From Terriglobia bacterium (lineage in GTDB: Bacteria; Acidobacteriota; Terriglobia; Bryobacterales; JACQDG01), in assembly GCA_041477005.1 (NCBI GenBank), contig JBGOUJ010000002.1, forward strand, positions 1 to 50,326: a DNA stretch of 50,326 bases, written 5' to 3'. Every line of letters starts with the position of its first letter. Positions within the stretch are counted from its first letter, which is position 1. Made by a program: the position numbers and the translations under genes. Positions 11,897 through 48,302 of the stretch are shown here, piece by piece. The notes below the pieces were generated by a model. It was not told the origin of the DNA. It saw only the letters and a list, made by a program, of their open reading frames with translations, and made no database searches.

Positions 11897-11904
11897 GATT
11901 CAAA

Positions 11905-11950
11905 TTCAATCGAATGATCTAATCATACGACTGATTTAGTCTTGTGTCAA
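11905..11950 (-). promoter_or_regulatory. Sigma70 promoter of the efflux operon with overlapping palindromic operator
   Basis: Minus strand TTGACA (11950-11945), 17-nt spacer, TATGAT (11927-11922); inverted repeat AATCA-N6-TGATT at 11921-11936 and a degenerate second copy toward the ATG. Confidence 0.8.
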
Positions 11951-12183: not shown

Positions 12184-12208
12184 GGAACATTTCCTCATCA
12201 GTGACGTA
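12184..12208 (+). promoter_or_regulatory. Putative ECF sigma factor promoter
   Basis: GGAAC-N16-CGTA just upstream of SD GGAGGA and GTG start at 12232. Confidence 0.55.
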
Positions 12209-12231
12209 TCCTACGAGTGGAGGAATGGGAA

Positions 12232-12687: not shown

Positions 12688-12736
12688 GGGCCCTTTGGGC
12701 CGGCCTTTCAGGTTACAATTGAAACCTGTCGAAGGA

Positions 12737-14434: not shown

Positions 14435-14435
14435 A

Positions 14436-14915: not shown

Positions 14916-14945
14916 TAAAAGAAAGCCTGGATGGTTTCCTGCCCT

Positions 14946-23647: not shown

Positions 23648-23844
23648 AACAGACGTCGGCGCGAATGTTCCGGGGCCGGATTAGAATCCCGGCTGGCAGG
23701 CGGCAGGCGAGCGCCGCGCCGGCTGTTCCGAGACCGTCGGCGATCGAGAGCCCGGTTTAGAGGAAGGGACGGGGGGATGTTGCAGCGGCGGCAAAGCGAA
23801 AACGGCCGGCAGGAGTCGTTCACGACTCCTATAGAGAGGAGATC

Positions 23845-29186: not shown

Positions 29187-29956
29187 GAGTTGTCATTTTG
29201 GCCGGCGGGTTGGGCACCCGGCTGGCCGAAGAAACTTCCGTAAAACCCAAACCCATGGTCGAGATCGGCGGACATCCGATTCTCTGGCATATCATGCACA
29301 TCTACGCCCACCACGGCCTCAGGCAGTTTATGGTGGCCCTGGGCTATAAGGGCGAGGTCGTCAAGGATTACTTCCTGCGCTACCACCCCACCAACAGCGA
29401 CATTACGGTGAATCTATGCACCGGCGCAGTGGAGTATCACAGCCGGCCGGCGATGGACTGGGAGGTCCGGCTGATCGACACCGGACACAACACGCTGACG
29501 GGCGGCCGGATCCTGCGCCTGGAGCCGCACCTGCGCCCCGAGGGGACCTTCTTGGTGACCTACGGCGACGGGGTGGCGGACGTCAATATCTCCGATTTGC
29601 TCGATTTTCATCGCAGCCAGGGAAGAATCGCGACGGTCACAGCGGTGCGTCCGCCCGCCCGCTTCGGAACCATGGTCTTCGACGGCGACCGGGTGAAGGA
29701 ATTCAAGGAAAAGCCGCAAACGGAAGAAGGCTGGATCAACGGCGGCTTCTTCGTCTTCGAGCCGGAAGTGTTCGATTACCTGAGAGACGATGACACCATC
29801 CTGGAGGCGGATCCGCTGGAGCGCCTGGCGCGGGACGGGGAATTGATCGCCTACCGGCATGAGGGCTTCTGGCAGTGCATGGACACCCTTCGCGACAAAA
29901 ACCGGCTGCAGTCGCTGTGGGAGTCCGGTACGGCGCCGTGGAAAGTCTGGCAGTAA
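29183..29956 (+). CDS. rfbF: Glucose-1-phosphate cytidylyltransferase
   Basis: ILAGGLGTRLAEET..KPKPMVEIG, TGGR, TYGDG, WINGGFF, FWQCMDTLRD. Confidence 0.93.
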   Translation: MRVVILAGGLGTRLAEETSVKPKPMVEIGGHPILWHIMHIYAHHGLRQFMVALGYKGEVVKDYFLRYHPTNSDITVNLCTGAVEYHSRPAMDWEVRLIDTGHNTLTGGRILRLEPHLRPEGTFLVTYGDGVADVNISDLLDFHRSQGRIATVTAVRPPARFGTMVFDGDRVKEFKEKPQTEEGWINGGFFVFEPEVFDYLRDDDTILEADPLERLARDGELIAYRHEGFWQCMDTLRDKNRLQSLWESGTAPWKVWQ

Positions 29957-29987
29957 TTCTAATGGGGAAAGAAAGAGGACAACGATA

Positions 29988-31037
29988 ATGCGGGTGTTGG
30001 TTACAGGAAGTGAAGGATATATCGGCTCGGTGCTGGTTCCGCTGCTGGTGGAGCGCGGACATGACGTGGCAGGTTTTGACACCGGCTATTTCGCCGAGGC
30101 CCGGTTCCTGCCGCTGGCGGCCAGCGAGTTGACGCGGCGCGGCGACTTGCGGGAGATCGAGGCGAAAGACCTGAAGGGATTCGACGCTATCATCCATCTG
30201 GGGGCGCTTTCCAACGATCCTTGGGGCCAGTTGAATCCGGAGCTGACCCAGCAAATCAACTACGAGTGCAGCGTTCGCCTGGCCAAGCTGGCCAAGCAAG
30301 CCGGGGTGGCGCGGTTTCTGTTTTCCTCATCGTGCAGCACGTACGGCGCGGCGTCGCAGGGGGGCGTGGTCGAAACCGACGAGCTGAACCCTCTGAGCGC
30401 CTATGCGGTGGCAAAGGTGATGGCCGAACGGGACATCACGCCGCTGGCCGATGACCGCTTCGCTCCGACGTTCCTGCGCAACGCCACGGTCTACGGCGTT
30501 TCGCCCCGCATGCGCTTCGACCTGGTGCTGAACAATCTGGCCGGCTGGGCTTTCACGACGGGAAAGATCGTCATCCAGAGTGACGGCACCCCGTGGCGGC
30601 CGCTGGTGCACGTCCGGGACGTGTCGGCGGCGTTCCTGGCCATCATGGAAGCTCCGCGGGAGGTGGTGGCGAACCAGGTGTTCAACATCGGTCAGGAGAG
30701 CGAGAACTATCAGGTCCGGGATCTCGCGGCGGCGACGGAGAAGGAGTTCCCAGGCAGCACGGTGGTTTATGCCGACCAGGCGTCGACGGGCGATCCCCGG
30801 TCCTATCGCGTCTCGTTCCGAAAGTTCTGGTCGGCTTTTCCGAACCTGCGGTTTGAATGGAACGCCGAGAAGGGGCTGCGGGAGCTGCACGAAGTTTTCG
30901 ACCGCGTGGGCTTCACCGGCGACCATTTTCAGCACCGCGACTTTATCCGGCTGAAGCAGATCGAGCACCTGCTGGAGACCGGCGCTCTGGACCACGAACT
31001 GCGATGGACCTGCGCGCTGGCGGCGCGGGAGGCGTAA
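29988..31037 (+). CDS. NAD-dependent NDP-sugar epimerase/oxidoreductase (extended SDR)
   Basis: GSEGYIG, SSSCS, YAVAK, RMRFDLVLN, SDGTPWRP. Confidence 0.88.
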   Translation: MRVLVTGSEGYIGSVLVPLLVERGHDVAGFDTGYFAEARFLPLAASELTRRGDLREIEAKDLKGFDAIIHLGALSNDPWGQLNPELTQQINYECSVRLAKLAKQAGVARFLFSSSCSTYGAASQGGVVETDELNPLSAYAVAKVMAERDITPLADDRFAPTFLRNATVYGVSPRMRFDLVLNNLAGWAFTTGKIVIQSDGTPWRPLVHVRDVSAAFLAIMEAPREVVANQVFNIGQESENYQVRDLAAATEKEFPGSTVVYADQASTGDPRSYRVSFRKFWSAFPNLRFEWNAEKGLRELHEVFDRVGFTGDHFQHRDFIRLKQIEHLLETGALDHELRWTCALAAREA

Positions 31038-31040
31038 GCG

Positions 31041-31490
31041 ATGATTGACGGCGTCAAGGTCATTCCGTTGAGGCGCATTCCCGACGAGCGCGGGACCATC
31101 TACCACGTCCTGCGCGCCGACGCGCCGCACTTCGCCGGCTTCGGCGAAGCGTACGTGTCCAAGATCTACCCGGACATCATCAAGGGCTGGCACATCCACA
31201 AAACGATGTGTCTGAACTACGCCGTGATCTCGGGCATGGTGAAGCTGGTGCTCTACGATTCCCGGCCCAATTCCTCCACCAAGGGGGAGCTGATGGAGCT
31301 ATTTATTGGTGATGACAACTATTGTCTGGTACAGATTCCTCCGGGCGTGGTCAACGGCCAGAAAGGCATGCCCCCCGAGCCCGCCTTGTTGATCAATGTC
31401 GCAACCCAGGCCCACACCCCCGGGGAGATGCAACGGATAGATCCGTTTTCGCCCGATATCCCGTACAAGTGGGATGTCGTGCATAGTTGA
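31041..31490 (+). CDS. RmlC-like cupin NDP-sugar epimerase family protein
   Basis: MIDGV, DERG, IKGWHIH, LYDSR..SST, IPPGV. Confidence 0.85.
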   Translation: MIDGVKVIPLRRIPDERGTIYHVLRADAPHFAGFGEAYVSKIYPDIIKGWHIHKTMCLNYAVISGMVKLVLYDSRPNSSTKGELMELFIGDDNYCLVQIPPGVVNGQKGMPPEPALLINVATQAHTPGEMQRIDPFSPDIPYKWDVVHS

Positions 31491-31583
31491 AAAACCGCTT
31501 CGACCCGGCACTCCCCCACGGAGATCGAACGCCTCGATCTTCTCTCGCCGCCGCACGAAGCAGAACGATTCCTTTCGAGGTGA
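31491..31583 (+). pseudogene. Relic 3' end of a homologous cupin gene
   Basis: ASTRHSPTEIERLDLLSP vs upstream ATQAHTPGEMQRIDPFSP (8/18 identical, ungapped). Confidence 0.55.
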
Positions 31584-31590
31584 GCCACGA

Positions 31591-32724
31591 ATGCTGACAC
31601 GCGAAAAAGTGCGTTTATCGAAATCGACCGTGGGCGACTGCGAGATGCAAGCGGTGGCCGAGGTGATCCGCGACGGCCGTCTGGGGATGGGGCCGCTGGT
31701 GGAAAAGTTCGAGCGCGAGCTGGCCGATTTCATCGGCGGCGATCGGGCCGTGATGTGCGTCAATACCGGCACGTCGGCGCTGCATCTGGGCCTGCAGGCC
31801 TGCGGCGTGAGCGCGGGGGACGAGGTGCTCGTGCCCACGCTCACCTATGTCGCTTCCTTCCAGGCGATCTCGGCCACCGGCGCCAGGCCGGTCGCCTGCG
31901 AAATGCGGGCCGAGGACTGCACGCTGGACGTGGAGGACGCCGCCCGGCGCGTCACGCCGCGCACCAAGGCCATCATGCCGGTACACTACGCGAGCGGTCA
32001 GGGAGACCTGGAGGGCGTCTACGATCTGGCGCGGCGCCAGGGCCTGCGCGTGGTCGAGGACGCGGCCCACGCCTTCGGCGGCTTCTGGAACGGCCAGCGC
32101 GTGGGCGCCTACGGCGATGTGGTCTGTTTCAGTTTCGACGGCATCAAGAACATCACCTGTGGGGAGGGCGGCGCCGTCGTGACCGCCGATCCGGTGGTCG
32201 CCGATCGCGTCCGCGACGCCCGGCTGCTGGGCGTGGAGAAGGATACCGGCAAGCGCTACGCCGGCCAGCGGAGCTGGGAGTTCGACGTCACCGGGCAAGG
32301 CTGGCGCTATCACATGAGCAATCTCAACGCGGCGATCGGCCGCGCGCAGCTCCGCCGGCTCGACGTGGAATTCGCGCCCCGCCGGATCGCCCTGGCCAGG
32401 CGCTACGTGGAACTACTCGCGGGCGCGACCAATGTGCGGCACCTCAAGCTGGATTACGGCCTGGTGGTCCCTCACATTTTCCCTGTCCTGATCGGCGAGG
32501 GGAAGCGGGACGAGGCCCGGCAGCGGCTGCTGGCCGAAGACGTCGAGTGCGGCATTCACTACAAGCCGAATCATCTGCTGTCGTACTACGGCGGCGGACG
32601 GGTTTCGCTGCCGGTGGCGGAGCAGCTTTATGCAGAGCTGCTGACGCTGCCGCTGCACGTGGACCTGATGGAGGAGGATCAAGACCGCGCCGTCGAAATC
32701 CTAAAGGACTGCATGAGGGGCTGA
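31591..32724 (+). CDS. DegT/DnrJ/EryC1/StrS sugar aminotransferase
   Basis: NTGTSALHL, PVHYAS, EDAAHA, SFDGIKNITCGEGG. Confidence 0.92.
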   Translation: MLTREKVRLSKSTVGDCEMQAVAEVIRDGRLGMGPLVEKFERELADFIGGDRAVMCVNTGTSALHLGLQACGVSAGDEVLVPTLTYVASFQAISATGARPVACEMRAEDCTLDVEDAARRVTPRTKAIMPVHYASGQGDLEGVYDLARRQGLRVVEDAAHAFGGFWNGQRVGAYGDVVCFSFDGIKNITCGEGGAVVTADPVVADRVRDARLLGVEKDTGKRYAGQRSWEFDVTGQGWRYHMSNLNAAIGRAQLRRLDVEFAPRRIALARRYVELLAGATNVRHLKLDYGLVVPHIFPVLIGEGKRDEARQRLLAEDVECGIHYKPNHLLSYYGGGRVSLPVAEQLYAELLTLPLHVDLMEEDQDRAVEILKDCMRG

Positions 32725-32738: not shown

Positions 32739-33689
32739 ATGCAGGACAAGCAACCACTTATTTCGGTGCTCATGTCGGTGAAGAACGGGCTGCCGTACGT
32801 CCGCGGGACCGTGGAGAGCATCCTGGCCCAGACCGCGACCGACTGGGAGTTTGTGATTGTAGACAACGCCAGCACGGACGGCAGCGCCGAGCTCATCGAG
32901 CGAATCGCCAGGAACGAGCCGCGCATCCGCCTGTTCCGCAATCCGGCGGATCTCGGTCACAGCGGCGGCTTGAACCGCGGCTTGGCCGAGTGCCGCGGCG
33001 TGTGGGTGGCGCGCCTCGACGCCGATGACATCGCGATGCCGGACCGCTTCGAGCGGCAGTTGGAATTCCTTCGCGAGAATTCCGACGTAAAAGTGACCAG
33101 TTGCCTGGCGTTGTACATCAACACGCAGGGCGAGACGGTGGGGAAAACATACAGCGAGCCGGCCACGCGGGAGACCTTCCAGAGGTACCTGAGAGAAAAC
33201 CTCGCCTTCGGTCTGCTGCACCCGGGGGCGATGGTGGACCGGGAGCTGTTCGTCAAGATCGGAGGCTACCGGGCTGCTTACGACCCGGCTAACGATACGG
33301 ACCTGTGGGGCCGGCTGGCCGACGCGGGCGGCGTGATCCTGGTGCAGCAGGAATACCTGATGAAATACCGGGTCCACGGCGGCTCGATCACCTCGCAGTC
33401 GTTCGAGCGCCTGCGGACGAAGTACCAATGGGCGCGGGACTGCATGCGAGCGCGCCGGAAGGGCCTGCCGGAGCCCACCTGGGAAGACTACGTGGCCGCG
33501 CGGCGCAACGCCCCGTGGTGGAAGCGGCTGAACCGGTGGCGCAAGACCAACGCCAGGAAGTTTTACCGGCAGTCAGCCCAGGACCTGATCTCCAACCACA
33601 CCTTCCGCGCGGCTTTCGAGGTTTTCCTGGCCATGCTACTGCAGCCGTCTTACGCGGCTCCCCGTTTGCTGGGACAAATTCACCGATGA
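32739..33689 (+). CDS. GT2 family glycosyltransferase
   Basis: ISVLMSV, IVDNASTD, ARLDADD; SD GGAG before ATG 32739. Confidence 0.9.
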   Translation: MQDKQPLISVLMSVKNGLPYVRGTVESILAQTATDWEFVIVDNASTDGSAELIERIARNEPRIRLFRNPADLGHSGGLNRGLAECRGVWVARLDADDIAMPDRFERQLEFLRENSDVKVTSCLALYINTQGETVGKTYSEPATRETFQRYLRENLAFGLLHPGAMVDRELFVKIGGYRAAYDPANDTDLWGRLADAGGVILVQQEYLMKYRVHGGSITSQSFERLRTKYQWARDCMRARRKGLPEPTWEDYVAARRNAPWWKRLNRWRKTNARKFYRQSAQDLISNHTFRAAFEVFLAMLLQPSYAAPRLLGQIHR

Positions 33690-33799
33690 CCACATCCCAT
33701 CCACAAATCGGACTGCAAGCGACGGGGGATCCTGCTGTGCCGCACGATGGACAAGCTAAAGGACGGCATGAGACTTTGCCTCCCGGCGAGGAGTCCAAA

Positions 33800-34645
33800 A
33801 TGGAAATCCTAGAGAAGACCATGCCAGTCAAGGAATGTCCTCCCAAGCGAGCCGTCCTGGGAGTCGGCATCAGCACGACGAGTTATGCCGAGGTCGCCCG
33901 ATACTGCAAGCAGTGGATTGAGGCGCGCCACAACTGGACGGAGAAAACCCCCGGGCTCCCACCCTCGCCCGCCGGGCGCTACATCTGTGTCACGTCGGTT
34001 CACGGCACGGTCACTGCGACCATGGATCCCCTTTTTCGAGCAATCCTGAACGACGCCGATATCGCCACTCCTGACGGCATGCCCGTGGTATGGGCGTTGC
34101 GTTCTTTCCAGGTGACCGGGCAACAGAGGGTGTACGGGCCCGAATTGATGCTCGTGATCTGCGAGCAAGCGGCGCAACTGGGGCACCGCCTCTTTCTCTA
34201 CGGCGGGCGCGAGGCAGCGCTGCAAGACCTGCGCCGGCGGCTGCTGGAGCGGTTTCCCCGCCTAACGATAGCAGGGACCTATTCCCCGCCGTTTCGGGCG
34301 CTCACTCCCGAAGAGGACGCCGCCGTCTCAGAAACAATCACCCGGTCGAACGCCGACATCATCTTCGTGGGTCTCAGCACGCCAAAGCAGGAAAAGTGGA
34401 TGTCTCAACACCGGGATCGGTTCCCCGGCGTCGTCCTGGTGGGGGTCGGCGCGGCGTTTGACTTTCATGCCGGGCGCGTCCGGCAGGCCCCGCCGTGGAT
34501 GCAGCGTGCGGGGCTCGAATGGTTGTTCCGGCTGCTGATGGAGCCGCGAAGGCTCTGGAAGCGTTACTTGCTGGTCACGCCGTTGTTTCTTCCGTTGTGG
34601 GCGATGCAGAAAGTGGGAATTCTCAAGTATCGCGACGTACCTTGA
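33800..34645 (+). CDS. WecB/TagA/CpsF (GT26) glycosyltransferase
   Basis: PDGMPVVW, RVYGPEL, YSPPF, GLSTPKQE, VGAAFDF, GLEWLFRL..EPRRLWKRY. Confidence 0.9.
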   Translation: MEILEKTMPVKECPPKRAVLGVGISTTSYAEVARYCKQWIEARHNWTEKTPGLPPSPAGRYICVTSVHGTVTATMDPLFRAILNDADIATPDGMPVVWALRSFQVTGQQRVYGPELMLVICEQAAQLGHRLFLYGGREAALQDLRRRLLERFPRLTIAGTYSPPFRALTPEEDAAVSETITRSNADIIFVGLSTPKQEKWMSQHRDRFPGVVLVGVGAAFDFHAGRVRQAPPWMQRAGLEWLFRLLMEPRRLWKRYLLVTPLFLPLWAMQKVGILKYRDVP

Positions 34646-34671
34646 AATCGAAAAGGAGATCGAAAGCGCGT

Positions 34672-35700
34672 ATGTCAGAACAAACAAAGGTTCTAGTTAC
34701 TGGAGCGGGTGGTTTCATCGGACATCATTTGGCGAAGTACCTGGTGGCCCGTGGTTACTGGGTCCGTGGTGTCGATATCAAACTGCCGGAGTATGAGCCG
34801 ACTGCGGCGCACGAGTTCCAGGTCCTGGATCTTCATCTGTGGGAGCAGTGCCTTCAGGCCACGCACGGCATGGACGAAGTGTACGGTCTGGCCGCCAACA
34901 TGGGCGGCATCGGCTTTATCGAGAACAACAAGGCCGTGATCGTGCGCGACAATACGCTGATCAATCTGCATTCGATCGAGGCGGCGCGCTTGAACGGCGT
35001 CAAACGATACCTCTACACTTCGAGCGCCTGTATCTATCCGGGCTACCTGCAGAAGGGCGTGGACGTGATCCCGTTGAAGGAAGAGGACGCCTACCCAGCC
35101 GACGCGGAAGACGGCTACGGTTGGGAGAAGCTCTACATGGAGCGGGCCTGCCGCCACTACCGCGAAGATTTCGGCCTGGAGACCAGGATCGTCCGATTCC
35201 ACAACATCTTCGGCCCCCTGGGAACCTACGACGGAGGCCGCGAAAAGTCACCTGCGGCCATGTGCCGCAAGATTGCCCTGGCGAATGACGGGGATGAGAT
35301 CGAGGTTTGGGGGGACGGCGAGCAGACGAGATCCTATTGCTACGTTGATGATTGCGTCGAGGGTATCTATCGACTCATGCGGTCAGACTACGCCGAGCCG
35401 CTGAACCTCGGACAGGACCGCTTGATATCGGTCAACGAGCTGGTTGACATGGTGGCCCACGTTGCCGGCAAGCGGATCGGGAAGCGGTACGATCGGAGCA
35501 AGCCGCAAGGCGTCCGCGGGCGGAACAGCGACAACACCCGGCTGCGCCAGGTGCTGGGCTGGGAGCCTTCGATCTCTCTCGAAGAAGGCCTCGATAAGAC
35601 CTATGATTGGATATCGTGCGAGCTGCGCAAAGCCGGCCGGATGCTGCCGGCAACAGCGTCCGTCGGGCCCTTCGTCCCAACGTTCACGGGAAAGTCATGA
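34672..35700 (+). CDS. GDP-mannose 3,5-epimerase-like SDR
   Basis: GAGGFIG, AANMGGIGFI, SSACIYP, YGWEKL, REKSPAAMCRK, PQGVRGRNSDNT, as in plant GME. Confidence 0.82.
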   Translation: MSEQTKVLVTGAGGFIGHHLAKYLVARGYWVRGVDIKLPEYEPTAAHEFQVLDLHLWEQCLQATHGMDEVYGLAANMGGIGFIENNKAVIVRDNTLINLHSIEAARLNGVKRYLYTSSACIYPGYLQKGVDVIPLKEEDAYPADAEDGYGWEKLYMERACRHYREDFGLETRIVRFHNIFGPLGTYDGGREKSPAAMCRKIALANDGDEIEVWGDGEQTRSYCYVDDCVEGIYRLMRSDYAEPLNLGQDRLISVNELVDMVAHVAGKRIGKRYDRSKPQGVRGRNSDNTRLRQVLGWEPSISLEEGLDKTYDWISCELRKAGRMLPATASVGPFVPTFTGKS

Positions 35701-35967
35701 CGCCTCCCCAGATCGGCGGTCACGACCCGACGGCGAGGGAGGCCAGTGTGGCCCGTCTGTTTCGGGAACTCGGGCAACGGGAGGCGCGTTACGCCGTGCC
35801 CGGTAACTACGAATGCCTGCCCGCGTTGCGCCGCCGCGTCCGCGCCGCGTTTGAAGTGGCGGCGGCCGGGGCGCGCCAGACTGCTCGCGCGGCTCCGGCT
35901 ATTCCGGGCAGATACATCTATGATGGAGACAAGGGTCCTTGAGGAACTCTTCGCGACGGGGGGGTAG
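35697..35967 (+). pseudogene. Internally deleted third paralog of the two downstream nucleotidyltransferase-like genes
   Basis: MTPPQIGGHDPTAREASVARLFRELGQREARYAVPGNYECLPALRR matches the paralog N-termini, then similarity stops abruptly near 35838. Confidence 0.75.
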
Positions 35968-35970
35968 GCC

Positions 35971-37077
35971 ATGACACATCCTCAGATCGACCGTTACGAC
36001 CCGACCGCAATGGAGGCCAGTGTGGCCCGCCTGTTCCGGGAACTCGAGCAACGCAAGGTGCGCTACGCCATGCTCCGGAACTACGAGTGCCTGCCCGAGC
36101 TGCGCCGCGACACCCACGCCGATCAGCCCACGGACATCGATCTGGTGGTCGATTCCCGGGACATGAGGATCTGGCGCGAGGCAGTCACAGAGGTCGCCGA
36201 ACAGGGCGGCTGGGACACGCTGGTGGAGTGCGATCACTGGACGCAGTCGCAGGTGCGGCACCACCACATCGAGGCCTTTCATTTTTACCGGCTCTCACCG
36301 CCCCAGTTTCTTCAGATCGACCTGTTTCACTCCTACCTGGTTTGCGGGCTGCCGCTGGTCGATGAACGGGAAATGCTGGAAGGCCGGATCTACGATGCCG
36401 ACCGTAACCTCACCCGGATCGATCCGTTGAAGGAGAACCTGCATCGACTGTCGCTGCTCTACACGGTGCTTTGCGACAATCCCAAGGCTGTCAAGGTCTC
36501 CCGGGATGGGGAAAAGCTGGTGCGGTTCTGGAAGTCGGAGCAAGAGAGATTCGGCCGGGTGGTGCGGGCGCACTTCTCGGTTCTGGGTGTACAAGCCATC
36601 CAGGCGCTGGAGCAGGGCGACCTGCCGCGGTTCCTGAGGAAAATGCGCTGGGCCAGAGTCTACTTTTTGATGAAGTTCGCGCTTTCGCATCCCCTTCGGA
36701 CGCCCTGGTACGGGCTCTGCCGAACGCGGGAAAACCGGTTGCGGTTTTTAACCCGGCAATGCGGACGAGTGGTGCGAGTCTACGCGCCGAAAGGGGAGCA
36801 CCGGCGGCTGCTGCGCGAGGTGATGGATGATCTGGCGCGGAATAACTTCGTGGACGAATGGAAGGAAAGGGCCGCCGGATCGTGGAAGCTCGGTCCGGAC
36901 GAGCGCGCGGTGATGGAGCAGGGCGGCCTGGTAATCCAGTGGAGCGACCGAGAAAAAGCTCACATCGACGTAGCGAGCAACTGCAGCGCCGAGGCGTTGC
37001 GTGCGCGCGTGGTCCGCGTATTGGTCGAGCGCCACGAGATTCTGTCGGTTCGCCCGGCGGCAGCGGCGACCGCCTGA
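35971..37077 (+). CDS. Uncharacterised protein with nucleotidyltransferase-like N-terminal domain (paralog 1, 368 aa)
   Basis: LRNYECLP...TDIDLVVD and downstream QIDLF, consistent with a DxD...D carboxylate triad. Confidence 0.65.
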   Translation: MTHPQIDRYDPTAMEASVARLFRELEQRKVRYAMLRNYECLPELRRDTHADQPTDIDLVVDSRDMRIWREAVTEVAEQGGWDTLVECDHWTQSQVRHHHIEAFHFYRLSPPQFLQIDLFHSYLVCGLPLVDEREMLEGRIYDADRNLTRIDPLKENLHRLSLLYTVLCDNPKAVKVSRDGEKLVRFWKSEQERFGRVVRAHFSVLGVQAIQALEQGDLPRFLRKMRWARVYFLMKFALSHPLRTPWYGLCRTRENRLRFLTRQCGRVVRVYAPKGEHRRLLREVMDDLARNNFVDEWKERAAGSWKLGPDERAVMEQGGLVIQWSDREKAHIDVASNCSAEALRARVVRVLVERHEILSVRPAAAATA

Positions 37078-37096
37078 CAGGCGAAGATCACAGATG

Positions 37097-38203
37097 ATGA
37101 CACATTCTCAGATCAGCAGTTACGAGCCGACAGCGGTGGAGGCCAGCGTGGCCCGTCTGTTCCGGGAACTGGAGCAACGCAAGGTGCGCTACGCCGTGCT
37201 GCGCAATTACGAGCTGCTGCCCTCGCTGCGCCGCGAAGACGGCTCCGCGCAGCGCACGGACATCGACCTGGTGGTCGATTCCCGGGACCTCCCCTCCTGG
37301 CGCGAAGTCGCCAAGGATGTCGCGGAACAGAACGGCTGGGATGCTCTGACCGAATGCGATCACTGGATGCAATCGCCGGCCCAGCACCACAACGCCGAGG
37401 TCTTTCGCTTTAACCGGTTTTCACCGCCGGAGTTCCTTCATGTCGATGTGTTCCACGGCTACCTCATCTCCGGGCTGCCCCTGGTGGACGAGGCAGGGAT
37501 GCTGGCGGGAAGGATCAAAGATCCCGGGGGCCGCTTTACCCGCATCGACCCGGTGACCGAGAACCTCTACCGGCTGATGCAGGTCTACTCTCACTATTGC
37601 GAGAATCCGGCCTCTGCCAAAGTAACCCGCTATCGAAAGAGACTGCTGCAGTTCTGGGAAACGGATCGGGAACGATTCCGACGACGCCTCCGCTCCAAGT
37701 TCTTCCTTTTCGGCGAGCAGGCGGTCGAGGCGTTGCAGCAAGAGGACATGAATCGGTTCGCGCGAAAGATGCGGTGGGCGAGGTTGTATTTTACGGTGAA
37801 ATTCTCCCTGGCCCATCCTGTTCGGACACCGTGGTATTGGTTTTGCCGGAAGCGCGAGAACCGGGTCCGCTTCTTTACCCGGCCGTGCGGGCGGGTGGTT
37901 CCGACCTGCGCGGCGGAAGAGAAGCGCCAGACTTTGCGCGACGTTTTGGATGAGCTGTCGTATAAGAATTTCATGGACCGATGGGCGGAGAGGACCGCGC
38001 CGGCGCAAGATATCAGCAAGATCGAGCGCTCCGTGATGGAACAGGGGGGGTTGGTGATCGAGTGGTCCAGCCCCGAGGCCTCCGAGCTTGTCATCACGGC
38101 AGCGGACGACCGGGAAAGCATCGCCAGAAAGGTCATCGAGATCCTCCTGGTCCGCCATCCTTGCTTGTTCCGTCGGGCCGAGAAGAAAGGCATTGCGGGT
38201 TGA
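37097..38203 (+). CDS. Uncharacterised protein with nucleotidyltransferase-like N-terminal domain (paralog 2, 368 aa)
   Basis: LRNYELLP...TDIDLVVD, HVDVF; collinear with paralog 1 and the same length from ATG 37097. Confidence 0.65.
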   Translation: MTHSQISSYEPTAVEASVARLFRELEQRKVRYAVLRNYELLPSLRREDGSAQRTDIDLVVDSRDLPSWREVAKDVAEQNGWDALTECDHWMQSPAQHHNAEVFRFNRFSPPEFLHVDVFHGYLISGLPLVDEAGMLAGRIKDPGGRFTRIDPVTENLYRLMQVYSHYCENPASAKVTRYRKRLLQFWETDRERFRRRLRSKFFLFGEQAVEALQQEDMNRFARKMRWARLYFTVKFSLAHPVRTPWYWFCRKRENRVRFFTRPCGRVVPTCAAEEKRQTLRDVLDELSYKNFMDRWAERTAPAQDISKIERSVMEQGGLVIEWSSPEASELVITAADDRESIARKVIEILLVRHPCLFRRAEKKGIAG

Positions 38204-38210
38204 TACGAGA

Positions 38211-40226
38211 ATGAGCAAACTGGCAGAACAGATGGACATCGAAAACGACGCCGACCTGGACCCCGTCCCGGTCGGGCCCGCTGACGCCGCCATCGCCAAG
38301 CGAGTCGCCTGGCTGGCAAGCCTGGGGAGGCCGCGGGGCATTTGCGTGGCCTTGGCCGGGCCTGACGGCGTCGGCAAGTCCACCGCCGTTGACGCCGTCC
38401 GGGAATGGTTCGAGCGCGAGCTGCCGTTCGTCAAAATCGAGCTGAGACGATGGCGACCCGGGCTGCTCCCGGATCTGGGGTCGTTCGTGGGCAGACCCAA
38501 CGAGGCGGGCGCACCCCGGAAAACGCCGGGCCGCTTTCAGTTCGTCCGGCTGTTTTATTACCTCTTTGATTTCTGGTTAGGTACGTTGTGGAAGGACAGA
38601 CGACGCTCCTCGTTCCCCAAAGTGATCATTTACGACCGCTGCGCCCTGGATATGCGGGTGCACCCGGTCCGTTTTGGGCTGCGCTCCGCACGGGGAACAA
38701 AGCTGCTGTGGCGGGTCACCCGCAAGCCGGATCTGGTAATTTTCCTTTCTGACAGTCCAGCACGGATCCTGGAACGCAAGCGCGAGCTCGAGAAGCACGA
38801 AGTGGAAGAGCAGCTCGAAACGTGGCTCCAACTGGCCCAGGAGGGCAAGGTCCGCGCCATCATCCGCATAGACGCCGGGGCCGAGGAAATTGGGGCGCGA
38901 GTCCGGGATCTGCTGTTGGAGACTTTGGTTCGCGAGAATGAAGCAGAGGCGGCCGGCGCCGGCGCCCCCGAGCAGGGCCTGCGACGGATCGGCTCGATCC
39001 TGACGGGGAACGCCGATAGCGCGGAGCTTTCGACGACGGGAGAGAAAGCGGGTTGGGAAGAGACGGCTCGATTTGCCGTTTTGCCGACAAGCTCCAGCCC
39101 GCGATTTCTCGTTCCGCTCGAACCGCGGCAAGCCGCGGGCCGCTCGCTTGATGTTTATAACGCTCAGAAACCGTTTGCCCGGTTGTGCAAACAGTTACTG
39201 CGGGCCGGACTGAGGGCGGGGGTCGCTCAGCCCTTGCTGCGCGACCGGGCATCCCTACTAGTTCGCTCCGATATCGCAAAGGAAAGCCGGGACCTGGTGC
39301 TGCTCCGGGAACACCTGGGCAAGGTACTCGGACGCGATGACATTGCGGTTAGTGTTTCGCTTGGCACTCCCGGGGTCTATCAAAAACCGGCTCTGCAAGT
39401 AATGGATGGAGCGGGAACAATCCTGGGATACGCCAAAGTCGGCTGGAACCCCGATACCATCGGGCTGGTGCAGAACGAAGAGTCTACGTTGAAAACGCTG
39501 CAAAACGCAGCCCTCGGCGCCGCGATCGTGCCCCGGGTCTTGCACGCGGGGTGGTGGAATGGCTTCTATTTGCTGGTGCAGGAGCCCGCGGTCGGGTCGT
39601 CGCGAAAGCCTCCGGTGGAGATCGACAGCCGTCACATCCGCTTTTTAGTGGAGCTGCTCGGCGCTTTTCCCACTCAGGGAGCACTCCCCTGGAGCGAGAT
39701 CACCCCGCAGATCCATCGGCGGTTGGAGCAATTGAAGGCCGGCGGCTTCCATTACTATGCCCACACCTTGGAGACCGCCGTGAAGTATTGCCGGGGACGC
39801 GTGGGATCGGCATCGGTTCCGTGCGGCCTGGGGCACCGGGACTTTGCCCCGTGGAACACCCGCGTGAGGGACAGCAGGCTCATCGTGTTCGATTGGGAAT
39901 ACGCCGACAGTGCCACTCCGGCCGGCTGGGATCTGTTTCATTTCCTGGTCGAGGCGGCCGTGGAGCTGCAGGGCAAGTCGGCGGCGGAGATTTACCGAAG
40001 CATCCTGGGCCCGGGCGCAGTGCGTAGCCGCGTGGAGGGGTATTTCCAGAGCCTCGGCCTGTCGCAGGACTGGATCGAGCCGTTGTTCGTCTCGTACCTG
40101 GCCGAAGCTCTCAACCGAAATCTCGACCTCGAGGAGCGGACCCTCGGCAGCAAAGATGGGCTGTTGCGAAGGACCTATGGAACGCTGCTGGCGCTCGTCT
40201 GCCGCACCGGAGCAGGCGCGAGATGA
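38211..40226 (+). CDS. Fusion of thymidylate-kinase-like P-loop domain and APH/choline-kinase-like phosphotransferase
   Basis: GPDGVGKST, IIYDR, KPDLVIFL in the N-half; YAKVG, HRDFAPWN, FDWEYA, WDLFHF in the C-half. Confidence 0.78.
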   Translation: MSKLAEQMDIENDADLDPVPVGPADAAIAKRVAWLASLGRPRGICVALAGPDGVGKSTAVDAVREWFERELPFVKIELRRWRPGLLPDLGSFVGRPNEAGAPRKTPGRFQFVRLFYYLFDFWLGTLWKDRRRSSFPKVIIYDRCALDMRVHPVRFGLRSARGTKLLWRVTRKPDLVIFLSDSPARILERKRELEKHEVEEQLETWLQLAQEGKVRAIIRIDAGAEEIGARVRDLLLETLVRENEAEAAGAGAPEQGLRRIGSILTGNADSAELSTTGEKAGWEETARFAVLPTSSSPRFLVPLEPRQAAGRSLDVYNAQKPFARLCKQLLRAGLRAGVAQPLLRDRASLLVRSDIAKESRDLVLLREHLGKVLGRDDIAVSVSLGTPGVYQKPALQVMDGAGTILGYAKVGWNPDTIGLVQNEESTLKTLQNAALGAAIVPRVLHAGWWNGFYLLVQEPAVGSSRKPPVEIDSRHIRFLVELLGAFPTQGALPWSEITPQIHRRLEQLKAGGFHYYAHTLETAVKYCRGRVGSASVPCGLGHRDFAPWNTRVRDSRLIVFDWEYADSATPAGWDLFHFLVEAAVELQGKSAAEIYRSILGPGAVRSRVEGYFQSLGLSQDWIEPLFVSYLAEALNRNLDLEERTLGSKDGLLRRTYGTLLALVCRTGAGAR

Positions 40227-41506
40227 AGCAACGGCTGAGAGTCTTGGTTTCCGCTTATGCCTGCGAGCCCGACCGGGGATCCGAGCCCGGAACGGGCTGG
40301 AACTGGGTGCGGCAGATTGCGCGTTACAACGACGCCTGGGTGATCACCCGGGTGAACAATCGCCGGGTGATCGAGGCGGCTTTGGCCAAAGATCCCCTGC
40401 CCAACGCGCACTTCATCTACTTCGATCTGCCGCGCTGGGCGCGCTTTTGGAAGCGGCGCAGGCGCGGGTTGCATCTCTATTACTACCTGTGGCAGATCGG
40501 GGCTTACGTATTAGGGAAGCGGTTACATCGGCAAGTGCGCTTCGATCTGGTCCATCACGTCACTTTCGCGATGTACTGGATACCCAGCTTCCTCTCTCTG
40601 CTGCCGGCGCCGTTGCTGTGGGGGCCGGTGGGCGGCGGCGAGACGGCGCCGGCCAGCTTCCGGCGCGCCCTCGGTCTGAGAGGCAGGCTTTTCGAGATCC
40701 TGCGTAACGTGGCGCAGGCCGTGGGGCACCTGGATCCATTCGTCCGCACGACGGCTCGTCGGGCCGCCCTGGCTCTGGCCACTACCGACCAGACCGTGGA
40801 GCGCCTGAAACGACTGGGTTCCCGCAGAGTCCAGGTCTGCTCTGCCATGGGGATGCCTTCGGATGAGATCGAGTCCCTCGGCAGGCTGGAACGGGCCAAG
40901 GACGGCGTTTTCCGGCTGCTAAGCGTCGGCGAACTGCTTCACTTGAAAGGCTTCGATATGGGGATACGCGCCTTTGCGAAGCTGAAGGGCGTCCTCCCCA
41001 ACGCCGAGTACTGGCTGATCGGGGCGGGACCGGAGCGGCAGCGGCTGGAAGACCTGGCACGCGAGCTGGGAGTGGCCCAGAAGGTCCGATTCTGGGGCGC
41101 GTTGCCCAGGCCCCAGGTGCTGGAGCGGCTCGGGCAGTGCGACGTGCTCGTTCACCCCGTTCTTCACGACTCAGGGGGCTGTGTCTGCACGGAAGCGATG
41201 GCGGCAGGGCGCCCCGTGGTCTGCCTGGATCTGGGGGGGCCGGCCCTCCAGGTGACTCCGGAAACCGGGTTCAAGATCACTCCTCTTTGCCCGGAGCAGG
41301 CCGTTCGCGACCTGGCCGAGGTTATCCACCTGCTGGCGGAGGAGCCGGCGCTGCGCGCCCGCATGGGCGAGGCAGCTCGCCGCCGCGTGCGCGAGAGCTT
41401 TGCCTGGGACACCAAAGGAGACCAGCTCCGAGACATATATGCATCGATCTTGAGACCGGCGGCTACAGTCTCCAATCAGAGGGCGTCTGCGGAGCTGGTG
41501 GTGTGA
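40223..41506 (+). CDS. GT4 family glycosyltransferase
   Basis: SAYACEP..GSEPG.GW, KGFD, IGAGPE, HDSGG..CTEAMAAGRPVV. Confidence 0.9.
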   Translation: MKQRLRVLVSAYACEPDRGSEPGTGWNWVRQIARYNDAWVITRVNNRRVIEAALAKDPLPNAHFIYFDLPRWARFWKRRRRGLHLYYYLWQIGAYVLGKRLHRQVRFDLVHHVTFAMYWIPSFLSLLPAPLLWGPVGGGETAPASFRRALGLRGRLFEILRNVAQAVGHLDPFVRTTARRAALALATTDQTVERLKRLGSRRVQVCSAMGMPSDEIESLGRLERAKDGVFRLLSVGELLHLKGFDMGIRAFAKLKGVLPNAEYWLIGAGPERQRLEDLARELGVAQKVRFWGALPRPQVLERLGQCDVLVHPVLHDSGGCVCTEAMAAGRPVVCLDLGGPALQVTPETGFKITPLCPEQAVRDLAEVIHLLAEEPALRARMGEAARRRVRESFAWDTKGDQLRDIYASILRPAATVSNQRASAELVV

Positions 41507-41515
41507 GCGGGATGA

Positions 41516-41584
41516 GTCAATCCTCAGTCTTTCACCTGGGATAAGAAAATGGAATGCCTGCCGGAAGCGTATTCGAAGGCGTGA
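41516..41584 (+). pseudogene. Relic 3' end of a homologous GT4 gene
   Basis: SFTWDKKMECLPEAY vs upstream SFAWDTKGDQLRDIY (7/15 identical). Confidence 0.5.
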
Positions 41585-41710
41585 GACGACCATGACGAGC
41601 CACGCTCTCCCATCCGCTTCCGCCTCGACGGCTGGACCCTCCACGCAGACACGGTTAGGTATACAATGCCCTTGATCAAACTGAGCTCAATACTGAGCTT
41701 GGAACCGAAG

Positions 41711-42532
41711 ATGACCCAAAAAGCACCATGGGAGACGGAAACGGCTTGCGGCAGCTCAATGACCTGCTGCCCGCTGTGCGAAAGCAGCGATATCGGCGCG
41801 CTGTTCCCGAGCATATGGGTGTGGAAATGCGCGAAGTGCGGTATGATATTCCGAAATCCCCAACCCACCGAGGAGGAGTTAAGCAATTTTTACAATAAAG
41901 CCTTCCGCCCGGAAAACGTGGCTGCACACACCACGGGAATGGCGGGCACGACCCACTCGCTGGCAAGGCAGTATGTCTCTTACCTATCCCGCAAGATCGG
42001 CGTCAAGCGAAAAAGAGTCCTGGAATTCGGAGCAGGATTGGGAAACACCTGCCGGGCGCTGCGCGAGTGTGGAGCGGATGTCACCGCCATCGAACCGTTC
42101 GCCTGGAAGGAGTGTCGTAACGCCGGCATCACTACGTGCCGTTCGCTGGACGAACTGCCGGAAAGCTCCAAGTTTGATGTTATCATAGCTCTGGAGGTTA
42201 TCGAGCACCTACGCTCCCCCTGGCTGAACTTGCGGCAGCTCCAAAGCCGTTTGCAGCCGGGCGGGTGGCTTTACGCGGCGACCCCAAACGCGGGCGGCCT
42301 GCGGGCGCGCCTGCACGGAGCGCAGTGGGGGGAGCTTACCAAGTACGGACACCTGCTGTTTTACACCTCCGGTACCCTGGAGCTCGCCTTGAAAAAGGCC
42401 GGGTTTGCGCGGTGCGCCCGCGTGAGAAGTCACGTGCGGCATTCCAGGCATCCCGGCAAGGTCCTGGCGCATTACGCTCTGCAGTCGGCTGGGCTGGACG
42501 GTGATCTGAGGTACTTGGCCCAAACGGCCTAG
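41711..42532 (+). CDS. Class I SAM-dependent methyltransferase with N-terminal Cys4 motif
   Basis: CPLC...CAKCG, VLEFGAGLG, FDVIIALEVIEH, LQPGG..TPN; start uncertain (41666, 41711 or 41759). Confidence 0.85.
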   Translation: MTQKAPWETETACGSSMTCCPLCESSDIGALFPSIWVWKCAKCGMIFRNPQPTEEELSNFYNKAFRPENVAAHTTGMAGTTHSLARQYVSYLSRKIGVKRKRVLEFGAGLGNTCRALRECGADVTAIEPFAWKECRNAGITTCRSLDELPESSKFDVIIALEVIEHLRSPWLNLRQLQSRLQPGGWLYAATPNAGGLRARLHGAQWGELTKYGHLLFYTSGTLELALKKAGFARCARVRSHVRHSRHPGKVLAHYALQSAGLDGDLRYLAQTA

Positions 42533-42533
42533 G

Positions 42534-43892
42534 ATGCAAAGGATGCAGAGAGCGCCGCAAGTGTACCCAGAGCGCCCGCGAGAGCGGGTTGAGCCGCCGC
42601 TGGGTATGGTCAGTCCCGAACTCCCTTATCCAGGCAAGTCAGCCGTGCGCGCGCCTGGCCTGGGCTTGTTCCTACTTGTGTGCTGGATTCTCTCCCTGGC
42701 CGGTCTCTCGGCGCCGGGGCGCAGCGGGCCGCTGACCGTGGGAGCCCTGGACTCGATCGCGGTGGTCAAACTGGCGACGCGTGGCATTGCTTTCGTGGTG
42801 CTCGCGCTGATTCTGCTGCGATACATCCAAACCAGAAGGTCGCGGGTGCTACTGCAGCGGCTTTTTCCGCTCATGTTGTTCGCCGGCTGGACGGTTGCCT
42901 CCATCTATTGGTCGGCTCTTCGGACGGTGACCATCGGCCATGCCGGCGAGGTGGTTCTGCTTGTAATGCTGTCCACCGCCGCCGGCTTTCTTTCCCTGGA
43001 GGAAGCGGACCACAAGAGAATTTGCTGTCACCTGACCATAATTACGGTGCTGATGAGCCTGTTGTTGATCGTTCTCAACTTCGGCCAAATCCTGGCAGGC
43101 GACCGTCCGGTGGGATATATGCATCCCAATGACCTAGCCAAGACCGCCGGGGCCGGCCTGATGATGTTGACGTGCTGCCATTTGCTCTGGAGATGGCAAT
43201 GGACGCGCAGGCTTCTCGTGCCCGCGGCCGGCATTCTGTCGTTCGCGATCTTCGCCGCACGATCCCGCACGGCGTCGACTCTGACGCCTCTCATGCTGCT
43301 GCTGATCTGCTGGCTGCTCCGAAAAAGCCGCACCCTGGTTGTCGTGTGTGCTTTGTGCGGTCTGCTGGCGGCGGTGATTGCCTATAACCAGACGGCCGAG
43401 CCCTTGCAGGATTCCGTCGTAGCCTATATGGCACGCGGCCAGAGGAGCGACGAATTGGTGGGCCTGAGCGGCCGGACCGAGCTGTGGACGATCGCCTTAC
43501 AATCATTCCAGGCCTCACCGATTTTCGGCAGCGGCTACTACGTGATGACCGAGACAGGGTTCTTTGACGTGTGGGGAAAGCGCCAGTGGCAGACAGCTCA
43601 CAACGCGTTTCTGCATGTTTTGACCGGCCTGGGCCTGGTCGGCCTCTTTTTCTTTCTCTGGGGGCTGGTCGCCGCCATGCGACCGTCTCTAGTGGCTCTG
43701 AAGGACCTGGGCCGTAGCCGAAAGGCTGAGTGCCTGGCCGCCGTGATGGTGATATGGTACTGCGCCATGGGAATGTTTGAGCTGTCCTTTTTCGGGCCGG
43801 TCGACACAGCGGTGGTGATTTTCTTCGTGACACTGGGAATTTCTGCGGGCAGGCCCCCAGCCCCTGGTCCGGATCGCCTTTATCAACCATGA
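42534..43892 (+). CDS. Wzy polymerase / O-antigen ligase family protein
   Basis: Multiple TMs, HPN, SRTA, SGRTELW, PIFGSG, HNAFL. Confidence 0.82.
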   Translation: MQRMQRAPQVYPERPRERVEPPLGMVSPELPYPGKSAVRAPGLGLFLLVCWILSLAGLSAPGRSGPLTVGALDSIAVVKLATRGIAFVVLALILLRYIQTRRSRVLLQRLFPLMLFAGWTVASIYWSALRTVTIGHAGEVVLLVMLSTAAGFLSLEEADHKRICCHLTIITVLMSLLLIVLNFGQILAGDRPVGYMHPNDLAKTAGAGLMMLTCCHLLWRWQWTRRLLVPAAGILSFAIFAARSRTASTLTPLMLLLICWLLRKSRTLVVVCALCGLLAAVIAYNQTAEPLQDSVVAYMARGQRSDELVGLSGRTELWTIALQSFQASPIFGSGYYVMTETGFFDVWGKRQWQTAHNAFLHVLTGLGLVGLFFFLWGLVAAMRPSLVALKDLGRSRKAECLAAVMVIWYCAMGMFELSFFGPVDTAVVIFFVTLGISAGRPPAPGPDRLYQP

Positions 43893-46097: not shown

Positions 46098-46161
46098 CGC
46101 GAGAACTCCATGCCCCACCCCAGTGCAGGCGAAAACGACGGTAGTCCGACTGGCCGGTGAA

Positions 46162-47862: not shown

Positions 47863-48302
47863 CCGGCTCCTGACCGGCCGGCGCCGCCCGCACCGCGGGG
47901 GCAGGTGCGCCTTGCCTGTATTCGCCTCGCGTTTGGGATCGGCCGGCCGTGCCGTTGAACGGCGGATCTCACCGGAACCAGCAGTGCTCGTGCGCCCGGG
48001 CGGCCGTGCGCCCGGCAGAAGGATACCTGCACCCTGTATAGATCGTACTATGAATTCGTACTAGCATGTACGCTACCTGCTCTTATTTCGTACTACGTCT
48101 TTTTGCCTAGCCTAACGGGACTAAGCCTCGGGGTGAATACGAAAAAATTGCACGGGAGATTGAGCAGAAAAGGGGTGATTGTCGATAGGACGGATGGCGG
48201 CAGGGTTTGCCAGTCCCGCTTATTCGTACTGGCCATGGTTTGGCGAGCCGATTGCATCGTCTTAGAGCCCGTCGGAAGCGCGGCCGCCAAACTTCTAGCC
48301 CG

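Follow-up and report, generated by a model that had tools for sequence, protein, structure and literature searches.

The gene set

The window analyzed here is a stretch of 50,326 nucleotides from a Terriglobia bacterium (assembly GCA_041477005.1, contig JBGOUJ010000002.1, positions 1 to 50,326). At positions 35697-40226, within an exopolysaccharide (EPS) locus, it holds a set of genes encoding two nucleotidyltransferase (NTase)-like paralogs, hereafter A and B, and a protein combining two kinase domains, one resembling thymidylate kinase (TMK) and the other choline kinase and aminoglycoside phosphotransferase (APH) (Table 1). A sequence-only reading of this DNA had described two 368-aa paralogs with the motifs RNYExLP, DIDL and a third Asp, as well as a kinase gene with GPDGVGKST, DR, HRDFAPWN and DWE; both descriptions hold, and the kinase motifs are all invariant among 33 homologs. 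As judged from comparison with relatives, the three genes are the split form of one widespread three-domain module and no local invention.

Paralogs A and B, two diverged and apparently active copies, share 56% protein identity (358 residues, E 2e-147) and 70% DNA identity, and each keeps 14 of the 14 family-invariant residues that were checked. Upstream of A lies a feature absent from the earlier description, an open reading frame (ORF) whose ATG at 35697 overlaps the stop codon of the epimerase gene. It shares 70% identity with A over the first 50 residues and 80.6% over 160 nt of DNA, and is recognized by the A1 profile with E 5e-6; the sequence then diverges and stops ahead of the DxD motif, leaving the catalytic motifs missing. 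This ORF is thus what is left of a third NTase-like copy, a stump of its 5' end. A full copy with an internal deletion was ruled out by the complete lack of similarity to the 3' part of A and B. Regarding the kinase, its ORF is open from a TTG at 38088, which would give 712 aa, and the likely start is the ATG at 38211, 8 nt past the stop of B; the ATG of the following gene, encoding a family 4 glycosyltransferase (GT4a), overlaps the kinase stop codon. Transmembrane-like segments are absent from A, B, the kinase and GT4a, from which the module proteins are predicted to be cytoplasmic. The stump-A, A-B, B-kinase, kinase-GT4 and epimerase-side junctions are bridged without indels by contigs of two public sediment-metagenome runs, one of which may be the sample of origin, and a promoter and terminator scan of positions 33000-42800 returned counts not above those of shuffled sequence.

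Table 1. Coordinates of the module, its predicted domains and the surrounding EPS locus (positions in the window; AF2, AlphaFold2; SDR, short-chain dehydrogenase/reductase).
Feature	Position (nt)	Strand	Remarks
EPS locus	from 21957 onward	+	genes on the same strand
Wza-type exporter	21957	+	
Wzc-type chain-length/tyrosine kinase protein	23845	+	
Initiating polyprenyl glycosylphosphotransferase	26208	+	TIGR03025 above cut-off
Wzx-like protein	27786	+	10 segments; weak Pfam Polysacc_synt match, E 0.0026
RfbF glucose-1-phosphate cytidylyltransferase	28991-29956	+	TIGR02623, 385 bits vs cut-off 300
SDR enzyme, dTDP-sugar-isomerase-like protein, DegT aminotransferase	within 28991-32724, with RfbF	+	
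WecG/TagA-type transferase	between DegT-type genes and epimerase	+	
GDP-mannose 3,5-epimerase	34675-35700 (within ORF 34495-35700)	+	directly upstream of the module; context gene, no fixed partner
Stump of a third NTase-like copy	35697-35942	+	81 aa; N-terminal 50 residues only, DxD motif absent
Paralog A	35971-37077	+	368 aa; NTase, helical bundle and dead P-loop-kinase-like stub
Paralog A, Pol-beta-type NTase domain	36004-36420		~residues 12-150; AF2 model
Paralog A, helical bundle	36421-36753		residues 151-261; AF2 model
Paralog A, degenerate P-loop-kinase-like stub	36757-37035		residues 263-355; no Walker A; AF2 model
Paralog B	37097-38203	+	368 aa (369 aa from ATG 37094); architecture as paralog A
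Double kinase	38211-40226	+	671 aa; TMK-like P-loop domain and choline-kinase/APH-like domain
Kinase, dTMP-kinase-like P-loop domain	38331-38939		residues 41-243; AF2 model, VIA
Kinase, choline-kinase/APH-like domain	38988-40226		residues 260-671; AF2 model, VIA
GT4 glycosyltransferase GT4a	40223-41506	+	Pfam Glycos_transf_1, E 5.7e-30
Methyltransferase	41666-42532	+	two genes downstream of the kinase
Wzy_C protein	42534	+	7 hydrophobic segments
Second GT4, polysaccharide deacetylase	after Wzy_C	+	
Two large right-handed beta-helix proteins	46123-47862, 48207-50324	+	close the locus

One three-domain module, split and fused

The link between the three genes comes from relatives in which they are joined. 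Indeed, kinase homologs of about 850 aa possess 220-240 additional N-terminal residues that match no Pfam model, and with hhalign this region aligns with columns 8-272 of the paralogs (probability 90%, E 1.5e-6 for P0055; probability 63%, E 6.9e-5 for P0120). In this alignment, the paralog segment RQCGRVVRVYAPKGEHRR falls on the strand-plus-Walker-A sequence of the fused homolog, so that the C-terminal stub of the paralogs is a decayed copy of the TMK-like domain. The occurrence of the NTase and the kinases in a single polypeptide also ties them functionally. Considering these fused forms, the dead stub may dock the NTase proteins onto the kinase; when paralog A (10-368) and the kinase (38-671) were modelled as a complex, the score was 0.00 against a mark of 0.32, which is uninformative on binding either way. 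Another group of homologs (P0056, P0057, P0065-P0068, P0071 and P0072 in alignment A2, columns 1-100) starts with a conserved Cys-rich segment of ~70 aa (GCRTC). This P0056-type extension was rejected as a remnant of the paralog, with an hhalign probability of 1.2%.

The arrangement of the module was counted in 30 related loci taken from genome records of more than ten phyla, with record labels including Acidobacteriota, Binatia, Gemmatimonadota, Calditrichia, Actinomycetes, Verrucomicrobia, Thermodesulfobacteriota, Phycisphaerae/Tepidisphaeraceae, Myxococcales, Lentisphaeria, KSB1, Paceibacteria and Nanoarchaeota. The TMK-like and APH-like domains share one ORF with an N-terminal extension of at least 220 aa in six of them, and in 11 others an NTase-TMK ORF directly precedes a co-oriented APH ORF. 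Locus L006 resembles the window in having TMK and APH in a single ORF, and its upstream ORF of 415 aa gave a weak hhalign match as a divergent NTase-stub protein (probability 23%, 46 columns at the helix-to-stub junction), while L016 contains separate TMK and APH ORFs together with an NTase-stub ORF of 380 aa. Finally, L014, L019 and L023 contain a lone TMK-like ORF of 253-255 aa with the same P-loop, DR and RK signature, located in EPS loci, and no NTase or APH partner was detected within 10 kb of it.

Across these arrangements the catalytic residues are largely preserved. The P-loop is kept in 31 of 31 TMK-like ORFs, as is [D/E/H]R (31/31), and among 24 complete APH ORFs, 23 retain the HxD..N and D[WF][ED] motifs. 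Regarding the NTase, 19 of the 21 ORFs aligned from the related loci have DxD, both exceptions being second tandem copies (L015 and L022). These two loci carry tandem NTase-TMK paralogs showing complementary decay (L015, 7781-9226 and 9248-10675; L022, 7799-9226 and 9248-10675): the first copies keep DxD and have no P-loop match, and the second copies keep the P-loop and have A..E or E..D in place of DxD. Such complementary decay mirrors the division of labour made permanent in the window. Two MAGs (metagenome-assembled genomes) labelled Paceibacteria or Nanoarchaeota contain proteins of 720-736 aa with both the NTase DxD and a TMK-like P-loop (L012, 8127-10334; L025, 4651-6813), and an APH-like ORF near the latter has lost its HxD..N residues.

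Fold and active site of the NTase-like paralogs

The motifs R36-N37-Y-E-x-L-P42 and D55-I-D57-L and the third Asp, D117, of A and B do not vary in any of the 33 homologs aligned, and no Pfam or NCBIfam model matched either paralog. The AF2 model of paralog A, built on 33 homologs (predicted local distance difference test, pLDDT, 92.2; predicted template modeling score, pTM, 0.89), was divided into the three domains listed in Table 1. Structure comparison with VIA over ~residues 8-220 returned JHP933 (4ok0, Z 8.5, root-mean-square deviation 4.3, 169 aligned), MenT1 (8an4, Z 8.3) and ANT(2'') (4xje, Z 8.0), followed by TglT and TM1012, the top five being all NTases; with Foldseek, NTases formed most of the top rows, the best E being 1.0e-3 and none reaching E<=0.001. 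Among the best fold matches of the two methods are the toxins MenT1, MenT4 and TglT and an alarmone synthetase. It is the combination of these moderate scores with the invariant D55-x-D57 and D117 that leads to the assignment as NTase. On the model, the N-terminal domain has the minimal alpha/beta core and the DxD plus third Asp of the Pol-beta superfamily, to which it is predicted to belong.

Sequence profiles add a thinner signal: PF14907 (NTP_transf_5) does not match A or B at E<=10 and matches six of the 33 homologs (best E 1.8e-5), homolog P0011 carrying a precomputed match, and a profile of the full-length paralogs against Protein Data Bank (PDB) sequences gave chance-level matches to ribosomal proteins only (best E 0.036). 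For residues 263-355 of paralog A, VIA returned P-loop proteins at Z 5.5-6.0, with MobB, APS kinase and a designed P-loop ATPase at Z 5.9-6.0; dephospho-CoA kinase, adenylate kinase and other designed P-loop proteins were also listed. The NTase fold anticipated by the sequence-only reading is thus borne out (VIA Z 8.0-8.5), whereas the idea of plain NTases has to be given up, as a helical bundle and a dead P-loop-kinase stub are attached.

Fold and active sites of the double kinase

In the double kinase (AF2 model, pLDDT 82.6), the residues invariant among the 33 homologs are distributed over both domains: GPDGxGKST, YDR (D142-R143), R189-K190, K392, E423, H542, D544, N549 and D561-W-E. With VIA, the TMK-like domain matched dTMP kinases (2plr, Z 14.0; 5x7j, Z 13.4) and the APH-like domain matched choline kinases and aminoglycoside or other small-molecule kinases (choline kinase 6yxs, Z 17.1, 280 aligned; 3tyk, Z 16.6), LicA (4r77, Z 15.6) and N-acetylhexosamine 1-kinase (4ocj, Z 13.8), so that the TMK and choline-kinase/APH folds guessed from sequence are recovered. 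With Foldseek, 233 structures matched the kinase at E<=0.001, headed by aminoglycoside and other small-molecule kinases.

For the TMK-like domain, a profile of the full-length kinase against the PDB was dominated by generic P-loop (ABC transporter) matches, and a domain-only profile of 27 sequences from many phyla resolved the assignment, thymidylate kinases being the best matches (E 1.7e-9). The structure 3lv8 aligned to this profile over almost the full domain (E 2.5e-8), with DR on DR, lid on lid, and the R-P-G of the family on the E-P-G of TMK. The domain therefore has the fold, P-loop, DR motif and lid of thymidylate kinase. It is nevertheless no housekeeping TMK, a reading ruled out by scores below the curated cut-offs (PF02223, 23.1 bits vs 27; TIGR00041, 18 bits vs 83.25) and by a true tmk at 95.6 bits on another contig of the same genome. 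Separate from the window, contig C98 of this genome also carries, at 4631-8345, three dTMP-kinase matches within 4 kb, one of them above the TIGR00041 cut-off. The second domain has the bilobal APH fold with the catalytic Lys and Glu, the HxDxxxxN loop and the metal-binding Asp. PF01636 gives no match to the window kinase at E<=10; many homologs carry a precomputed match and, on rescanning, nine of 14 homologs match at E<=0.01, one of these below the cut-off.

Genomic context and distribution

The module was placed by the sequence-only reading in a Wzx/Wzy operon whose homologs would be tied to glycan loci, and both points stand. Genes for Wza, Wzc, the initiating transferase, a Wzx-like protein and a Wzy_C protein lie on the same strand as the module, and in a Pfam scan of 76 ORFs from eight of the related loci, seven neighbourhoods proved to be EPS loci holding Poly_export, GNVR, Bac_transf, GT4 or Wzy_C. 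Moreover, the cassette is syntenic in G282, a relative of the same order, where a TMK-APH ORF comes after a single NTase-stub ORF, in the order seen in the window. Identities between the two cassettes are 53% for Wzc, 58% for Wzx, 75% for RfbF, 57% for WecG, 38-41% for the single-copy NTase-stub protein, 48% for the kinase, 61% for GT4a, 40% for Wzy, 50% for the second GT4, 57% for the deacetylase and 48% for the beta-helix protein. The single NTase-stub copy of G282 indicates that the duplication and the stump are particular to the lineage of the window; in the tree, the branching order of A, B and P0006 is left open (support 84/66) and with it the timing of the A/B duplication.

The module has a conserved companion, passed over so far, in GT4a. 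Its homologs (37-60% identity, at least 64% coverage) often accompany the module, being found in 14 of the 30 loci; of the 20 three-domain loci flanked by 4 kb or more, 13 have one. In L018, L024 and L033, GT4a is 52-53% identical against ~30% for the kinase. Homologs of the WecG-type transferase occur in 17 of 30 loci. In the window and in L007, L009, L015, L017 and L018, the module is followed within three genes by a Wzy_C gene; in L006 such a gene lies upstream. By contrast with these genes, two neighbours that the earlier reading had brought into play are no fixed partners: the methyltransferase is indeed two genes downstream, yet a homolog was found in one of the 30 loci (L018, 33% identity), a further match in L006 covering 40% of the query only, and RfbF has homologs in two of the 30 loci and in G282.

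Other genes of the locus inform on the polysaccharide itself. The epimerase gene matches Arabidopsis GDP-mannose 3,5-epimerase (2c59) by phmmer at E 3e-106 (359 bits, the next family reaching 109 bits) and has homologs of 61-65% identity in five of the 30 loci (L005, L009, L015, L031 and L033). With such an enzyme encoded directly upstream of the module, the EPS may contain L-galactose or L-gulose; a literature search on this epimerase and EPS returned nothing relevant. RfbF and the SDR, isomerase-like and DegT enzymes (28991-32724) suggest that a CDP-linked amino-deoxy sugar goes into the same EPS. The first beta-helix protein has homologs (35-48% identity) that recur in related cassettes, and the second, with a choice-of-anchor Q domain, runs off the end of the window. 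Two ORFs, at 23113-23760 (+, 215 aa, between Wza and Wzc) and 12854-14464 (-, 536 aa), have no Pfam or NCBIfam match. Unrelated to the module, a homolog of BshC (bacillithiol biosynthesis) is encoded at 2866-4650 (+) beside an ABC-2/HlyD/OEP efflux set with a TetR regulator.

Regarding distribution, a profile of the NTase part plus stub matched 716 cluster representatives (50% identity) at E<=0.001 among 1.84 billion, 197 at 1e-10 and 101 at 1e-30, and none of the 716 has an assigned function; the best 150 matches are mostly stand-alone proteins of ~320-370 aa. Word-indexed searches returned 46 paralog homologs and 108 kinase homologs, all from metagenomes or MAGs and none functionally named, and seven paralog/kinase homolog pairs share the size of the longest contig, a hint of linkage. 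In the class of the window, the NTase part is present in two of 151 sampled genomes and, in the phylum, the kinase (E<=1e-15) is present in at least four of 151, the latter count being a lower bound in which eight first-look candidates per genome were scored. The module is thus patchy, as is usual for variable surface-polysaccharide loci.

Comparison with known systems

Our full-text literature search, in which the coverage of subscription journals was thin, found no study of an NTase/TMK/APH module. Among described systems, the module is most like PsmK/PsmN and more loosely like LicA/LicC/LicD, and it is a member of neither. PsmN is the nearest studied protein and the sole experimentally touched relative of the NTase part. 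PsmN is reported to be needed for the addition of one or two hexoses on the phosphate(s) placed by PsmK on the C-terminal Ser of the lasso peptide pseudomycoidin, and a D134A/D136A double mutant is dead (PMC6993621). The order of events is like the one considered here, the kinase acting ahead of an NTase-fold protein whose DxD is essential and which adds a hexose to the phosphate. PsmN, a member of an 'uncharacterised nucleotidyltransferase' family, was moreover modelled on ANT(2'') (5cfs, 4xje), structures that also match paralog A, and PF14907 is touched by the six paralog homologs mentioned above. The differences are nonetheless substantial. PsmK/PsmN act on a peptide Ser with an HPr-kinase-like kinase that is neither APH nor TMK, no helical-bundle/P-loop-stub architecture is on record for PsmN, the window paralogs have no PF14907 match, and the chemistry of PsmN is itself unsettled.

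With the Lic pathway, the module shares an APH-fold small-molecule kinase (LicA, 4r77, profile E 0.0016) joined with an NTase-fold transferase in a surface-glycan locus; it differs in lacking a LicC-type cytidylyltransferase, the TMK-like kinase holding the middle position. LicD has an NTase fold, and the sequence-only reading had compared A and B to it. This kinship has no support in sequence: PF04991 matches neither paralog at E<=10 and is matched nowhere in the 94%-complete genome. As to structure, LicD/fukutin-type phosphotransferases are not among the matches listed by Foldseek or VIA for the paralog. Compared with Tmk itself (PF02223, TIGR00041), the domain of the module has the same fold (Z 13.4-14.0) with P-loop, DR motif and lid; it departs from it by R-P-G in place of E-P-G and by its sub-cut-off scores and, apart from the lone forms and one locus described below, is always found in EPS loci, fused to NTase and/or APH.

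Proposed function and alternatives

Intact active sites in three nucleotide-using domains, fusion in many lineages, a cytoplasmic location and EPS operons in which the module stands beside a conserved GT4 are the observations from which a function can be proposed. By analogy with the systems above, the kinases would make a phosphate or diphosphate ester that the NTase-fold protein would couple, which would yield a decoration of phosphodiester type or else an unusual activated donor, a reading to which we give a probability of about 0.5. The APH-like domain might phosphorylate a hydroxyl, borne either by a small alcohol or sugar or by the lipid-linked repeat unit. The TMK-like domain might then add a second phosphate to the phosphomonoester, as dTMP kinase does on dTMP, or alternatively handle a nucleotide; the TMK-type DR motif and the R-P-G element suggest that its acceptor is a phosphate rather than a hydroxyl. 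Through its DxD...D metal site, the NTase-fold protein could finally couple the phosphorylated species to its partner. The polymer or repeat unit would thereby gain a substituent attached through a phosphodiester, or the adjacent GT4 would be supplied with an unusual activated donor. Any single step of this relay is much less probable than the general proposal. In the same direction, a pair formed by a thymidylate kinase and a PF14907 protein is reported to flank phosphoenolpyruvate (PEP) mutase in one phosphonate gene-cluster family (PMC8942020), which would fit a role of the module in activating phosph(on)ate compounds. Together with the PsmN data, this observation fits a three-step scheme in which an ester is made, the TMK-like domain acts on its phosphate and the NTase-fold protein couples the product.

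A more specific version would be an activation route sparing nucleotides. The two kinases would form a relay leading to an alcohol or sugar diphosphate, and the NTase-fold protein or the GT4 would use this non-nucleotide diphosphate donor to make a phosphodiester or glycosidic link; as it stands, this chemistry seems a long shot. We regard with similar reserve its corollaries, namely that the route would be of Kennedy/Lic type without cytidylyltransferase and that the stub would dock a hetero-oligomer having one NTase site and one kinase site.

Several points weigh against the proposal that the module makes and couples a phosphate ester. Every chemical step of it is drawn by analogy, and no substrate, product or phenotype is on record for any member of the module. 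The fold scores of the NTase are moderate, unrelated best matches often reaching the VIA range of Z ~7-8.5, and the window's own proteins match no Pfam NTase or APH model. An hG[GS] motif preceding DxD is a canonical feature of NTases; in the family it is replaced by L-R36-N37-Y-E, in which R36 and N37 are invariant, and distant relatives carry H-S, H-G or Q-R at this position. The lone TMK-like proteins of three loci imply that this domain can apparently act without the other two. The link to GT4a, although frequent, is non-obligatory, seven of the 20 well-flanked three-domain loci having no clear homolog. In L013, the module is flanked by nonribosomal peptide synthetase (NRPS) genes. As for the analogy with PsmN, in vitro activity of this protein is reported to be lacking (PMC11912497) and its authors allow that PsmN may only make a substrate for a host enzyme (PMC6993621). 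The L013 locus, from an Acidobacteriaceae MAG, has its NTase-TMK and APH genes between AMP-binding, condensation, P450 and thioesterase genes (2979-15578), and a GT4a homolog lies 9 kb downstream.

The alternative that survives best is a donor-supply or salvage pathway for GT4a, in which the APH-like domain would be an anomeric sugar kinase, as NahK and AmgK are, the NTase-fold protein would make an NDP-sugar from sugar-1-phosphate and the TMK-like domain would recycle the nucleotide, no phosphate being left on the polymer. In its favour are the overlap of the GT4a start with the kinase stop and the 14 loci with GT4a; the conservation of GT4a above that of the module in L018, L024 and L033 fits a fixed sugar donor, and N-acetylhexosamine 1-kinase is among the APH-fold matches. 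The PsmN authors likewise allow that PsmN may make the substrate of a glycosyltransferase (PMC6993621). On the other hand, GT4 reactions release NDP, which makes the need for an NMP kinase not obvious, and GT4a is missing from the seven well-flanked loci mentioned above. To our knowledge, sugar-1-phosphate nucleotidylyltransferases use the Rossmann-like NTP_transferase fold and not Pol-beta. Moreover, the APH subfamilies (choline, aminoglycoside, homoserine and sugar) score so closely (Z 13.3-17.1, the top ten rows within 1.5) that the fold gives a sugar kinase no preference. Such a pathway is in our view unlikely, although it deserves to be kept in mind.

Direct modification of the glycan for length or export control is improbable. 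WaaP and KdkA are sugar kinases, and WbdD, the O9a chain terminator, is a single kinase-methyltransferase protein capping chains in ABC-transporter-dependent O-antigen synthesis; here, a similar cap would be placed by the kinase, with the NTase adding a nucleotide. The likeness lies in a kinase-fold enzyme and a methyltransferase gene (41666-42532) in one surface-glycan operon, and in the Wzy_C genes near the module in seven loci, the window included. However, a WbdD-type terminator proper is ruled out by the separate methyltransferase gene and the Wzx/Wzy/Wza/Wzc pathway, which has its own chain-length system, and the methyltransferase has its single homolog among 30 loci. Wzy polymerisation is, in addition, periplasmic, whereas the module proteins are predicted to be cytoplasmic. 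Least probable is a regulatory or protein-directed system modifying a protein of the assembly machinery, a signalling nucleotide or a toxin-like or defence module merely residing in the locus, for although toxins and an alarmone synthetase are among the best NTase fold matches and the module is patchy, patchiness is the rule in such loci, small-molecule kinases lead the APH-fold matches, PADLOC gives zero matches for A, B, the kinase and GT4a, and the genes hold a fixed place in EPS operons, on the same strand and with overlapping stop and start codons, within a cassette syntenic in G282.

Concluding remarks

What is new in the window is, first, a natural split that isolates the NTase from both kinase activities and so allows them to be individually expressed, mutated and assayed. 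The dead stub, as evidence of common origin and possible docking piece, offers a concrete and testable idea of how the parts assemble, and the NTase duplication with its stump is specific to this lineage. If the proposal that the kinases and the NTase-fold protein build and couple a phosphate ester is true, a recurring and unnamed set of EPS-locus enzymes, present across more than ten phyla in bacteria from soil, sediment and elsewhere, would make a phosphate-based modification or an unusual donor, and such a modification is not predicted by any current annotation. Phosphate-type groups alter the charge, metal binding and adhesiveness of the biofilm matrix as well as its recognition by phages.

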